Source: Alphaproteobacteria bacterium (GTDB taxonomy: Bacteria > Pseudomonadota > Alphaproteobacteria > UBA828). From it: a DNA stretch of 64,000 bases. The stretch is taken from positions 480,001-544,000 of the forward strand of contig CBDCQT010000010.1 in the NCBI GenBank assembly GCA_965220745.1. Direction: 5' to 3'. Under the pieces are notes generated by a model. It was not told the origin of the DNA. It made no database searches and saw only the letters and a list, made by a program, of their open reading frames with translations. The position numbers were made by a program, and so were the translations under genes. Shown in pieces: positions 35,039 to 44,222 of this stretch; within the stretch, counting starts at the first letter, position 1, and every line of letters starts with the position of its first letter.

Positions 35039-35114
35039 TGGCGTCCCCAGGGGGACTCGAACCCCCGTTTCCGGCGTGAGAGGCCGGTGTCCTAGGCCAC
35101 TAGACGATGGGGAC
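35039..35114 (-). tRNA. tRNA-Glu(CTC)
   Basis: Canonical cloverleaf GTCCCCA...CT-CTC-AC...TTCGAGT...TGGGGACGCCA. Confidence 0.95.
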
Positions 35115-39353: not shown

Positions 39354-39489
39354 CGTGCAGCCTTCTCCCGCTCGCGGGGTCATGGGCGATATGGCGCCCC
39401 TTGGCGGCACCCGTCAAGCCCCCGGTGCGCGGGCGCTCGCATGCGTCTGTCGTCAAGCACTATGTTCAGTTACTTTCGACTACCGACCT

Positions 39490-40281
39490 TTAGTCGTCGC
39501 CTGTCCATCGTTCTTCTCGCTCTTGATCGCGCGCCTCCGCAGTGCGCCCTTCCGCATCGTTGGTGTATTCGGTGGCCATGACTCCCTGAACCGGAGCGAT
39601 CATGACTTTGTTTAAGTTGAGAAATTGGACGAGGGTATCAATCTCTTCCGCTGTGGTCAGGCGAAAGGAGCCCTCTAGGGCCGTCCCATCAAACGCCGCA
39701 CGGAATGGCGTTCCCTGTTGCGGAGGTGGTGGCGGCGCCAAATCGGCACCCGACGACATGCTCGGTTGCATTGTTTGGTCCGCCTCTTTGCCAAGTTCAG
39801 CAGGACCTTGATCGTAGAAAGCACTCTCGCGTTCGGCAAGCTCCATTGTTTCACGATAGGCGAGCAAAGCGATGCCTGCCGCCCCACTATTGAAGTTATT
39901 TCGCAAAAGATAGTTCCGCAGAAGTCCCTCGTTGTCCCGGCCGCCGGGGAAACGCTCGGTTAGGGTCGCGAAGAGTTCCGGGTCAGATGCAGCATCCTGG
40001 ATGGCGCTCACACGCTCCTGGGGAGATTCAGGGTGGAGGCACTTCATCCCGCGCTCACTGATCTTGAGGTCGCTTCCCTGGCGCTCCAAAAGACCGTATT
40101 TCTTCAAAGCTGATACGGCCGTCGCAGACTTGCCATGCAGACCGGAATAGCCCAGCCCCGTCGCTATGTCCTCTCGCGGCGCGGGGTGCGCCTGGACCGC
40201 GTTCCACAGCCTCTGCAGGCGCTCCAACGCCTCCGGTAGCCCGAGGGCAGGGTAGTTCGGGGATCGCGCTCGCTTGCTCAT
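39490..40281 (-). CDS. Hypothetical protein, probable winged-helix N-domain (DUF5343-like, tentative)
   Basis: RSPNYP..L.EAL...IATGLGY....SALKKYGLLE. Codon usage less GC3-biased than neighbours; RBS GGAG. Confidence 0.7.
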   Translation of the reverse strand: MSKRARSPNYPALGLPEALERLQRLWNAVQAHPAPREDIATGLGYSGLHGKSATAVSALKKYGLLERQGSDLKISERGMKCLHPESPQERVSAIQDAASDPELFATLTERFPGGRDNEGLLRNYLLRNNFNSGAAGIALLAYRETMELAERESAFYDQGPAELGKEADQTMQPSMSSGADLAPPPPPQQGTPFRAAFDGTALEGSFRLTTAEEIDTLVQFLNLNKVMIAPVQGVMATEYTNDAEGRTAEARDQEREERWTGDD

Positions 40282-40359
40282 CGTTATTCTCCACTCGTAC
40301 GTGGTGGGGAGAATAACACGCTCCCTCGTGTACGTAAAACTTTTTTCACGACTTCCAGG

Positions 40360-40388
40360 TTGACGAGAGACTCTGGCAATAGCAGAAT
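40360..40388 (+). promoter_or_regulatory. Putative sigma70 promoter
   Basis: TTGACG-N17-CAGAAT, upstream of the structured RNA / tRNA-like element. Confidence 0.55.
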
Positions 40389-40415
40389 GAGCCCCAGAGC
40401 GAGTCGGAGGCGCAT

Positions 40416-40505
40416 ATGAACAGAAGAGAGTGGAGCCCCCACCGGTATCGCCGAGCGCTGGCGGGGGCGAGGACAAACAGCAGGGGCCGCTGCCCAGCTC
40501 CCTAA
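40416..40505 (+). CDS. Putative 29-aa leader peptide
   Basis: GGAGG at 40406-40410, ATG at 40416, MNRREWSPHRYRRALAGARTNSRGRCPAP, TAA stop. Confidence 0.3.
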   Translation: MNRREWSPHRYRRALAGARTNSRGRCPAP

Positions 40506-40541
40506 GACGCAAGCAGCGGCCCCGAATCGGCCCGTCTTAGG
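40483..40541 (+). ncRNA. Predicted H-type pseudoknot abutting the tRNA-like element
   Basis: 40483-40493 pairs with 40513-40523 (11 bp, perfect); 40501-40509 pairs with 40533-40541 (9 bp, perfect). Confidence 0.5.
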
Positions 40542-40630
40542 AGGCGTAGCAGAGCGGTCGAATGCAGCGGTCCTTAAAAACCGCCGGACCTCCCTTGGTC
40601 TCGTGGGCTCGAAGCCCACCGCCTCCGCCA
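40540..40630 (+). tRNA. Non-canonical tRNA: serine-type body, 8-nt anticodon loop CCTTAAAA
   Basis: Acceptor GGAGGCG/CGCCTCC-G-CCA, D arm GCA..TGC, anticodon stem GCGGT/ACCGC, long variable arm GGACC/GGTCT, T arm GTGGG-CTCGAAG-CCCAC. Confidence 0.75.
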
Positions 40631-40847
40631 GACCCCACTAAGGCCGATGTGTCCATAGCACGTCGGCCAACTTTTTAAAATCAATCTTTTGCCCAGCGTT
40701 TCGAAGCGGCCTTCCGCACGATTTCCCGCCGCCGCTCGGGCGAGAGGGGCGGACTTCGAACTGACGCAGTACCGTGCATTGACGCGCCCCGGCCTTCGCG
40801 CGAGCATAACAGATTCCGCGAGTGTGGCTCTCAGGGAGGAACGGGAC

Positions 40848-42122
40848 ATGGCGCGCACCGTCTTCACCAACGTCAGCATCTTCGACGGCACCGGCAAGAG
40901 GCCCTTCCGGGGCGAGGTGTCGATCCAGGGCAACCGTATCGAGAAGGTCGCCAGGAACGGCCAGAAGCTGTCGCGGCGGGGCGCTGCGGTGGTGGACGGC
41001 GACGGCGCCACGCTGATGCCGGGGCTCGTCAACGCCCACTGCCACATGAGCTACACCGGGCCGGAAGCGATGTCCGAGATCCCGCCCGAGGAGCACACGC
41101 TCATCACCATGCACAACGCCAAGACGATCATCGATCACGGCGTGACCGCGGCTGTGGGCGCGGGCGCGGCGAAGACACGCCTCGATATCGTGATCCGGAA
41201 CGAGATCGACGCCGGCCGCATCCCCGGTCCGCGCTACCGCGCCTGCTCGCCGGAGATCACGGTCACCGGCGGCCTCGGCGACCAGCGCATGCTGCACTAC
41301 TACAAGAACGACCTCTCGCTCTTCGCCGATGGGCCGGAGGAGATCCGCCAGGCCTGCCGCATGCTGGTCCGCGAAGGCGTGGACATCATCAAGCTCATGC
41401 CGTCGGGCGATCACCTGATCCCCGGTGCCTGCGATGCCACCCAGAGCGCGATGGACGAGGACGAGATCGCCGCCGGCGCGCGGGTCGCGCACCAGCGGGG
41501 CCGCCGCCTCGCCGCGCACGCGCGCAATCCGGAATCGATCCGGCTCTGTATCAAGTACGGGATCGAGCTGATCTACCACGCGACCTACGCGGACGAGGAA
41601 TCTCTCGACCTGCTGGAGGAGCACAAGGACAGGCACTGGGTGGTGCCGGCGATCGGCTTCACCCACGCGACTGCCTACGAGGCCGGCGAGTTCGGCATCT
41701 CGCCGGCGGAAGCCGAGTCATGGGGCTTCGTCCGCGAGCTCGAGATCGGAGCCGAGACCCTGAAGAAGATGCACGCGCGCGCAATCAAGGTGCTGCCCTT
41801 CGGCGACTACGGCTTCCCCTGGACGCCGCACGGCCAGATGGCGCGGGACTTCGAGCACTTCACCAACTACCTCGGCATGAAGCCCTACGAGATCATGCGG
41901 GCCGCGACCCACTACGGCGCCCAGGCCTTCGCTGCGCCGGACGAGCTGGGCCGCGTCAAGCCGGGCTGCCTCGCCGACCTGCTGCTGATCGACGGCAATC
42001 CGCTCGCCGATCTCACGCTCTTCCAGGACGAGGCGAACATCCTGATGGTCATGAAGGACGGCGCCTATCACAAAGCGCCGCAGGCGCGGCAGAGGGTCGT
42101 GCAGCAGGCCGCAGCCGAGTAG
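40848..42122 (+). CDS. Metal-dependent amidohydrolase
   Basis: MPGLVNAHCH, IIKLM, AAHA, YHAT, ADLLLIDGNPL. Confidence 0.88.
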   Translation: MARTVFTNVSIFDGTGKRPFRGEVSIQGNRIEKVARNGQKLSRRGAAVVDGDGATLMPGLVNAHCHMSYTGPEAMSEIPPEEHTLITMHNAKTIIDHGVTAAVGAGAAKTRLDIVIRNEIDAGRIPGPRYRACSPEITVTGGLGDQRMLHYYKNDLSLFADGPEEIRQACRMLVREGVDIIKLMPSGDHLIPGACDATQSAMDEDEIAAGARVAHQRGRRLAAHARNPESIRLCIKYGIELIYHATYADEESLDLLEEHKDRHWVVPAIGFTHATAYEAGEFGISPAEAESWGFVRELEIGAETLKKMHARAIKVLPFGDYGFPWTPHGQMARDFEHFTNYLGMKPYEIMRAATHYGAQAFAAPDELGRVKPGCLADLLLIDGNPLADLTLFQDEANILMVMKDGAYHKAPQARQRVVQQAAAE

Positions 42123-44145: not shown

Positions 44146-44222
44146 GCGCTCGTAGCTCAGCTGGATAGAGCACCAGACTACGAATCTGGGGGTCGGGGGT
44201 TCGAATCCTCCCGAGCGCGCCA
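44146..44222 (+). tRNA. tRNA-Arg(ACG)
   Basis: GCGCTCG TAGCTCAG...CT-ACG-AA...GTTCGAATC...CGAGCGC GCCA. Confidence 0.96.

Follow-up and report, generated by a model that had tools for sequence, protein, structure and literature searches.

Background

Leader-peptide attenuators such as trpL, hisL, pheL and leuL carry a promoter-proximal Shine-Dalgarno (SD) sequence and a short open reading frame (ORF), whose tandem sensor codons precede stable hairpins and whose peptide sequence is unimportant. A leader of similar design was found in an alphaproteobacterial genome (GTDB lineage UBA828; assembly GCA_965220745.1, contig CBDCQT010000010.1), within a stretch of 64,000 nucleotides (nt), positions 480,001 to 544,000 of the contig, which is called the window here and to which all coordinates refer. 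Positions 40395-40539 of the window are best read as the 5' leader of one transcript that ends in a tRNA-like gene. On the best reading of its relatives, the leader belongs to an undescribed family in which a regulatory RNA of the leader-peptide type is applied to a mobile tRNA. Like the attenuators, it combines an SD sequence and a short ORF with tandem codons. The mutually exclusive antiterminator and terminator of the attenuators, with a U-tract, are not found in the leader; in addition the regulated product here would be a tRNA-like RNA and not an enzyme operon, the fold is a pseudoknot, and no leader family in Rfam corresponds to it.

Translation attenuation of erm and cat genes provides a second comparison. 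There, a ribosome stalled in the first 5-9 codons would open the foot of the hairpin next to it, and the 5-codon ORFs seen in the present family are comparable. In erm and cat, however, the melted hairpin frees the SD sequence of a downstream ORF, whereas no downstream ORF is present here and no drug link is known. Transfer-messenger RNA (tmRNA) also unites a tRNA-like domain, a pseudoknot and a short ORF with its stop codon in or near a hairpin loop; the ORF of tmRNA lacks an SD sequence and AUG and lies inside the tRNA-like domain, whereas the ORF described here lies wholly 5' of a contiguous cloverleaf, and ARAGORN reports no tmRNA. T-box leaders are likewise structured and tied to tRNA biology, but they lie in front of genes for proteins, and the tRNA that they recognise in trans is contacted by a specifier loop and by the T-box bulge; the present leader has no T-box match in Rfam and no conserved specifier, and is followed by a tRNA-like gene and a terminator.

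Conserved non-coding RNAs carried on insertion sequence (IS)-like elements, as here, include the bridge RNA of IS110 and the omega RNA of IS200/605. In contrast to these, no complementarity between a variable loop and element ends or targets was detected here, in a weak test that covered the loop of one hairpin (H1, below) at 19 loci. We know of no RNA cofactor for DDE transposases of the IS1 type.

The closest described counterparts of the tRNA-like cargo are irregular tRNAs. Main-text passages of Mukai et al. 2016 (PMC5389517) report that irregular Ser-type tRNAs stopped the growth of E. coli when induced, and that irregular tRNAs and allo-tRNAs, which have 8/4 or 9/3 arms and are mainly of acidobacterial and clostridial origin, occur near transposable elements and toxin-antitoxin loci. 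The cargo described here resembles those tRNAs, as far as the passages describe them, in its Ser identity or G3:U70 pair, its nonsense or missense anticodons, its patchy occurrence on mobile DNA and the inactivity of some copies; the tRNAs of that study are toxic when over-expressed. It differs from them in being 7/5 and alphaproteobacterial, and those passages mention neither a conserved leader nor a partner protein. Literature searches found no description of the leader or of the cassette that carries it, the nearest being irregular tRNAs beside transposons and toxin-antitoxin loci in Acidobacteria.

A structured leader upstream of a tRNA-like gene

On the + strand of the window, TTGACG (40360-40365) and CAGAAT (40383-40388), separated by 17 nt, form a sigma-70-like promoter that is the sole promoter-like site within 39800-41200, a region in which shuffled sequences gave 0.3 +/- 0.6 sites. 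The SD sequence GGAGG (40406-40410) follows, with a 29-codon ORF that starts at ATG 40416, has tandem AGA AGA codons at 40422-40427 and ends at UAA 40503-40505. Two hairpins lie in the same region: P1 (40435-40445 paired with 40458-40468), which has a 12-nt apical loop and, in the window copy, one A.C and one G.U pair, and H1 (40483-40493 paired with 40513-40523), which is perfect over 11 base pairs (bp). A third helix connects GCCGA in the apical loop of P1 (40450-40454) with UCGGC in the tail behind H1 (40527-40531). A pyrimidine-rich spacer of 8 nt (40532-40539) then leads to the 5' end of a Ser-type tRNA-like gene (40540-40630), behind which stands an intrinsic terminator (40642-40668, or 40642-40678 at its widest), an 11-pair stem followed by a T run, that is conserved in two relatives (G008 and G001). 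The stretch from leader to terminator appears to be a single transcription unit, with a predicted start at the promoter upstream of the leader. In the opposite direction runs the gene for an uncharacterised protein, here called protein A.

An earlier sequence-only reading of this DNA had named the promoter, the GGAGG ribosome-binding site with its 29-codon ORF, a hairpin at about 40435-40468 and the perfect H1, its helix 1. All of these are present; the position of the promoter and the SD/AUG pair recur in related loci, and both hairpins recur and covary. The third helix had been missed. That reading also offered a larger structured RNA as an explanation. Rfam, in which it had proposed to search, supplied no family: with release 15 nothing in 40300-40720 reached a gathering threshold, and the best matches at E <= 10 were at chance level.

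About 60 related loci were compared. A 351-nt query made up of leader, tRNA and terminator had matches in 21 of 61 related genomes, nearly all to the tRNA part only at 71-78% identity; three copies checked among these matches (L002, L005 and L006) are ordinary tRNA-Ser(tga) genes. The leader proper was matched in three of the 61 genomes. In G008 the match has 91% identity and begins exactly at the SD sequence, upstream of which the sequence is unrelated, so that the window promoter is not alignable there; in G001 it has 85% identity, with the contig starting inside H1; and in G039, a member of another family, it has 77% identity and covers the H1 region only. The G039 locus (L020/L059) is a truncated version, with a promoter-like TTGACA right before the linker and H1 and without SD sequence, ORF and P1. 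Downstream of it stands a 72-nt tRNA-like element with a poorly paired anticodon stem, and a distant relative of protein A is found 4 kb away.

A pattern of H1 plus tail, scanned over 185,579 species genomes, matched 22 places. Eleven of them (L040-L044, L048-L051, L054 and L059) have the full architecture, all in alphaproteobacterial metagenome-assembled genomes (MAGs); the other 11 lack SD sequence, P1 and tRNA and were judged by eye to be chance matches. Since the pattern fixed the stem of H1, loci found with it are uninformative on the covariation of this hairpin. A scan of viral contigs with the stem pattern gave 0 matches. A collection independent of the RNA was built from an alignment of protein A, which gave 226 relatives, from which 80 metagenome loci were kept; the loci were searched with two covariance models, R1 (11 leaders) and R2 (47 leaders). 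Upstream sequence of 300 nt or more was available for 64 loci, and at 49 of these the leader was found divergently upstream of protein A.

The 110 nt that precede the ATG were scanned for sigma-70-like sites in 45 distinct leaders. In 37 of them the best site stops 17-35 nt short of the ATG, an interval that has no shuffle control of its own; the mean score of the best sites is 9.5 against 8.3 +/- 0.9 for shuffled sequences. In all 31 of the 60 leaders whose cargo ARAGORN could call, 4-13 nt (median 8) separate the 3' strand of the third helix from the first base of the tRNA.

Covariation of two hairpins and a loop-tail pseudoknot

Across 67 distinct aligned leaders, 88.3% of the cells assigned to structure pair, compared with 71.6% in shuffled controls, of which 0 of 500 reached the observed value, and with 40-45% when strands were slid against each other. 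H1 is paired in 94.5-95.9% of cells and P1 in 85.3% (67 rows), and in each hairpin 10 of the 11 pairs change on both sides. A plain MAFFT alignment of 11 leaders likewise yields P1 and H1, and folding the leader by itself gives a minimum-energy structure with both hairpins.

The third helix was absent from the covariance model, and the alignment was thus not fitted to it. Its strands are mainly of two types, GCCGA/UCGGC and GCUCACC/GGUGAGC, with at least four rarer combinations. The five core pairs show CG/UA, GC/CG and GC/AU exchanges; over the 67 rows, pair 66:216 is CG in 40, UA in 14 and UG in 4, and pair 67:215 is GC in 34, CG in 15, UG in 6 and UA in 2. When loops and tails were compared independently of alignment columns, cognate duplexes had an energy of -9.8 kcal/mol and non-cognate ones -7.7 kcal/mol, and 0 of 5000 permutations were as low as the cognate value. 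With this compensated pairing between the loop and the downstream strand, the leader is predicted to fold as an H-type pseudoknot composed of P1 and the loop-tail helix, in which H1 is embedded. Pairs of the G.U kind outnumber A.C by 51 to 16 in P1 and by 25 to 4 in the core of the pseudoknot, an excess that points to RNA of the + strand.

A mutual-information scan returned only pairs belonging to P1, H1 and the pseudoknot; no further long-range helix was seen, and none of the top pairs involves the SD sequence or AUG. Outside the helices, conserved blocks are found in the purine-rich linker after P1, in an internal loop of H1 and in the tail. The 5' strand of H1 (40484-40493) matches, at 90% complementarity, the first part of the anticodon arm (40564-40573), which resembles the 3' strand of H1; by eye this match does not co-vary across cargo types, and it was discarded.

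A short ORF that opens with rare tandem codons

An SD-like word and a start codon are present in 44 of the 45 distinct leaders, a count that includes a few doubtful automatic start calls in the ORF table, and this conservation suggests that the leader ORF is translated. A purine hexamer (AGR-AGR, AAA-AAA or AAG-AGG) occurs in 42 of 60 leaders, and CGN-CGN never does. The hexamer stands directly after the start codon or one codon later and is in frame both ways; in several leaders the AUG lies 3 nt closer. Of the 111 arginine codons in five window genes, none is AGA and 10 are AGG, so the leader opens with the rarest codons of its host in tandem.

Beyond about five residues the peptide is unconserved, and the frame in which H1 is crossed differs between loci. 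In the 45 leaders the stop codon falls in the H1 loop in 23, before or within P1 or in the linker in 12, in the 5' strand of H1 in 4, and later or nowhere in the stretch in 5, with one leader having no start call; some relatives have a 5-codon ORF that ends at the foot of P1. The constraint therefore seems to lie on the loading and pausing of ribosomes and not on the peptide.

A mobile cassette with a divergent partner protein

The leader is part of a cassette of about 1.33 kb (39445-40773, boundaries +/- 5 nt) that comprises the protein A gene, the control region, the leader, the tRNA-like gene, the terminator and a right-end sequence. The DNA that flanks it is contiguous in six relatives of the same genus (G006, G004, G009, G005, G001 and G008), which identifies the unit from protein gene to terminator as a 1.33-kb insertion, one without a transposase of its own. 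Alignment with the empty site places the junctions at about 39444/39445 and 40773-40777, where there is an imperfect 4-nt repeat (ATGC and GTGC against GCGC in the empty site) and the ends are weakly similar inverted sequences. Within the cassette the GC content dips to 0.59-0.63. Two ordinary tRNA genes, tRNA-Glu(ctc) at 35039-35114 and tRNA-Arg(acg) at 44146-44222, flank the region, and both reach the Rfam tRNA threshold.

A class-wide sample yielded the leader in 2 genomes out of 151 and protein A in 5 out of 401, with the window genome counted in both; such a patchy distribution is typical of mobile DNA. An IS1-like DDE transposase of about 293 amino acids with an N-terminal helix-turn-helix lies at L041-L044, L048-L050 and L059, downstream of either the tRNA-like element or the protein A gene, and the copy in G008 adjoins a transposase of the IS1595 family instead (L003:1910-2881 among the transposase sites). 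Several cassettes can share a genome: one MAG (L042, L048 and L054) has three, of which two share an identical leader region, and the metagenome contig L136 bears two leaders 1.1 kb apart (906-1053 and 2132-2274).

Protein A (39490-40281, - strand) is a 263-residue protein whose gene is divergent from the leader, and a relative of about 260-300 amino acids in divergent orientation stands beside the leader in every true related locus examined. Its 474 homologues are all unnamed or called 'hypothetical', and no family in Pfam, NCBIfam, PADLOC or PHROGs was matched. An AlphaFold2 (AF2) model has a mean pLDDT (predicted local distance difference test) of 83, and its N-terminal 150 or so residues are winged-helix-like, with a weak likeness (VIA-align Z about 7) to the recognition domain of FokI, to BrxA and to MarR proteins. 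Foldseek found nothing at E <= 0.001; a weak match (E 0.15-0.3) was to the ROQ domain of Roquin, a winged helix that binds RNA hairpins. In the ESM Atlas the protein falls among unnamed clusters, and the nearest named one, DUF5343 at 0.85, serves as a lead only.

Between protein A and the promoter, a perfect 10-bp inverted repeat (40283-40292/40308-40317) encloses the SD sequence of protein A, and may serve as an operator or, as a hairpin, mask this SD sequence. At the two equivalent positions, by the start of the protein and by the -35 element of the leader, other loci carry palindromes of different sequence, for example CGTTAGC/GCTAACG.

The tRNA-like cargo

ARAGORN reports 40540-40630 as 'tRNA-???' with an odd anticodon loop, and the Rfam tRNA model stays below threshold. 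The window tRNA and its homologues in G008, L065 and G001 were read as folding 7/5 with a long variable arm, and not with the 8/4 or 9/3 arms of allo-tRNAs. More than 20 loci searched, some of them in duplicate, have a 7-nt anticodon loop, CUUUAAA (anticodon UUA), together with the T-loop UUCGAAU; among the homologous tRNAs, all with 7-nt loops, the anticodon is UUA in G008 and CUA in G001. The window tRNA departs from this common cargo at positions 10 (A10), 33 (C33) and 54 (C54) and has an extra A, which gives an 8-nt anticodon loop. It thus lacks the 7-nt loop, U33 and canonical T-loop of a functional suppressor, and is probably a decayed copy of an ochre suppressor.

Of the 60 leaders, 15 are followed by a tRNA with anticodon UUA, one by CUA, seven by a 72-76-nt element like 'Val tac', eight by other or odd calls and the remaining 29 by elements that ARAGORN does not call. 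One uncalled element with an irregular body (L042:2059-2150) has G3:U70, A73 and CCA, which on reading are features of alanine identity. The SD region GGAGGCG (40406-40412) is identical to the 5' acceptor strand of the window tRNA (40540-40546), and when the full transcript is folded to minimum energy the SD sequence pairs with the 3' acceptor strand; by eye this GGAGG-CCUCC pairing is a by-product of Ser-type tRNAs that is absent with other cargo, and it was rejected as a candidate regulatory helix.

A proposed translation-sensing gate on tRNA release

A translation-coupled switch, which the sequence-only reading had proposed, remains a reasonable idea given a promoter, a conserved SD/AUG pair and a conserved pseudoknot beside the tRNA. 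We tentatively propose, as an account that comes close to being probable without quite reaching it, that the leader is a translation-sensing, cis-acting gate on a potentially toxic mobile tRNA, set by ribosome occupancy against the pseudoknotted fold. A ribosome starting on the short ORF would unfold P1, and hence the pseudoknot, and usually H1 as well; with a ribosome paused at the rare codons, or with none, the domain would be free to fold immediately next to the RNase P site. How much mature tRNA leaves its precursor would then depend on the balance of folded and unfolded states. Protein A, divergent and winged-helix-like, would probably provide a second layer of control at the promoter region that it shares with the leader. 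The analysis shows the structure with its conservation and covariation, the conserved start region, the closeness to the tRNA, the gene linkage and the mobility; from these we infer the transcription start, translation of the ORF, the permissive fold and the parts played by RNase P and protein A. Tight control of this kind would make sense, since the cargo is usually a nonsense-suppressor or irregular tRNA on a mobile cassette.

Several observations weigh against this proposal. The length of the ORF ranges from 5 to more than 80 codons, so that unfolding of H1 by a ribosome cannot be universal. No terminator-like site was found on the + strand in 40389-40540; with no terminator between leader and tRNA and no alternative, mutually exclusive helix, ribosome occupancy is the only second state that a switch could have. 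Of the 64 loci with protein A, 15 have no leader match at E <= 0.01, a few of which still show the same layout by eye, and the 29 of 60 downstream elements that ARAGORN leaves uncalled are a further difficulty. The columns of P1 and H1 come from model-fitted alignments, which leans the pairing counts towards structure, and the folding energy of the leader alone is unexceptional against shuffled sequences (z = -1.5). Finally, G.U pairs in H1 number 16 against 38 A.C, the latter concentrated at three columns of one subgroup, where an internal loop or a register problem is probably responsible.

Alternative explanations

The leader may itself be the product: a structured RNA of about 140 nt, freed by RNase P, that would work together with protein A or the IS1-like transposase, or be antitoxin-like, with the tRNA-like element mainly as a handle for 3'-end processing or stabilisation. 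We consider this unlikely but worth keeping in view. In its favour, conservation is much stronger in the leader than in the cargo, which includes Ser-type suppressors as well as the uncalled elements (29 of 60); the leader is strictly linked with protein A, whose weak match to the ROQ domain is to an RNA-hairpin-binding fold; it often adjoins IS1-like DDE transposases; and in the window the tRNA looks decayed while the leader is intact. On the other hand, the recurrence of the UUA anticodon loop in more than 20 of the loci searched argues that the cargo decodes, the conserved SD sequence and AUG would be left unexplained, and protein A best resembles winged-helix domains that bind DNA. Nor does the H1 loop look like a guide: compared with the rest of 19 loci it gave only scattered matches of 8-10 nt, in the same sense or complementary, and no guide-like pattern, in what is a weak test. 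A match between the H1 loop and the left junction of the window cassette (10 nt, 90%) is one of eight such pairs listed, and the idea of a guide RNA was dropped.

Alternatively, the pseudoknot could be a riboswitch-like or T-box-like sensor of a small ligand, a tRNA or a protein, in which case the ligand and not translation would control tRNA output. Several riboswitch classes share a compact H-type pseudoknot with an embedded hairpin, and the highly conserved blocks outside the helices would suit a binding site of this kind. We nevertheless regard it as distinctly improbable: no Rfam match was obtained even at E <= 10, the neighbours are protein A and transposases with no ligand-related genes nearby, and a sensor gives no reason for the SD sequence, the AUG or the rare codons.

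It is very improbable that the short ORF encodes a functional Arg-rich micropeptide to which the RNA structure is secondary. A recurrent N-terminus, M-x-R/K-R/K-V, in which the third position of the valine codon varies (GUU, GUA, GUC and GUG), and the likeness of the window, G008 and L065 peptides over their full length would favour a selected peptide. The lengths of 5 to more than 80 codons speak against it, as do the shifts of frame across H1, where the nucleotides stay conserved, and the covariation of the helices as RNA. Moreover, arginine is encoded throughout by AGR and never by CGN in hosts that are GC-rich, a pattern that indicates selection for particular nucleotides or codons and not for the amino acid.

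The sequence-only reading had built its switch from two interleaved helices, H1 and a helix 2 (40501-40509/40533-40541, + strand), which together would form the pseudoknot and of which helix 2 was to contend with the acceptor stem; in the model as examined here, the locus's own tRNA would also read through the UAA and feed back on folding. Helix 2 does exist in the window copy as a perfect 9-bp pairing; it contains the UAA stop (40503-40505), covers the first two bases of the tRNA (G40540-G41) and can be extended to 20 nt at 75% complementarity. When the full transcript is folded to minimum energy, helix 2 is chosen over H1; its duplex energy, -19.0 kcal/mol, is an outlier, the second strongest of 45.

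Comparison of relatives removed the family-wide basis for this model, since helix 1 was supported by covariation and helix 2 was not. In 46 distinct rows 48.0% of helix 2 cells pair, compared with 47.7% and 49.7% when the partner was slid by -2 and -1 and with 45.4% in shuffled controls. Of the eight pairs within alignment A6, G008 keeps 6/8 and L065 keeps 5/8, and in the closest relatives, G008 and G001, both strands carry changes that weaken the helix rather than compensate. A looser pairing of loop and spacer in shifted register was also ruled out: between the H1 loop and the 16 nt after the pseudoknot, cognate sequences gave -8.7 and non-cognate ones -9.2 kcal/mol, and 1721 of 2000 permutations were as low. 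Pairing at control level and its degradation in the closest relatives make helix 2 a real feature of the window copy that is private to it, and the decay of the window tRNA may also explain how it could arise there. What the family keeps at the 5' end of the tRNA is a pseudoknotted fold 4-13 nt upstream, made from other strands than helices 1 and 2, and H1, the helix to be displaced, is the best-supported of all.

The read-through part fares no better as a circuit. Continuing past the UAA, the next in-frame stop is indeed the TAA in the anticodon loop (40575-40577), but among related leaders the ORF ends with TGA in 24, TAA in 9 and TAG in 8, mostly beside tRNAs with anticodon UUA. In G001 a TAA stop stands beside a CUA tRNA and in L040 a TGA stop beside a UUA tRNA; as stops do not match anticodons, reading of the stop by the adjacent tRNA is not a conserved circuit. 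The model of helices 1 and 2 is thus largely refuted as a family mechanism, and we give it only a slender chance of describing how these leaders work.

That the inverted repeats act as DNA sites for the transposase or protein A, and not as RNA structure, can hardly be right: H1 is a perfect palindrome on a mobile cassette and has no excess of G.U over A.C, but the stems change freely with complementarity kept, P1 and the pseudoknot have a strand-specific G.U excess, and the pseudoknot joins two non-palindromic segments 70 nt apart.

Conclusions

If the leader is a translation-sensing gate, a broader and rather unlikely extension is that the cassette as a whole is a mobile 'toxic-tRNA' module, consisting of a repressor-like winged-helix protein, the leader as sensor of translation and a miscoding or suppressor tRNA as effector. 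If translation were perturbed, be it by stress, by a phage that attacks tRNAs or because the repressor is lost, the leader would release the tRNA, and proteome-wide read-through would lead to arrest; the module would be an abortive-infection or addiction system spread by IS1-like transposases.

P1, H1 and the loop-tail pseudoknot make up a new RNA motif, with about 60 distinct examples, that is absent from Rfam and is tied to an uncharacterised protein family of at least 474 members and to IS1-like elements. For annotation, a class of 'odd tRNA' calls in Alphaproteobacteria is the cargo of a 1.3-kb cassette. Genes for tRNAs are normally without translated, structured leaders, and a conserved one, if the proposed gate is real, would be a new form of control over tRNA supply. 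It would also explain how nonsense-suppressor tRNAs can be carried on mobile DNA without self-poisoning.

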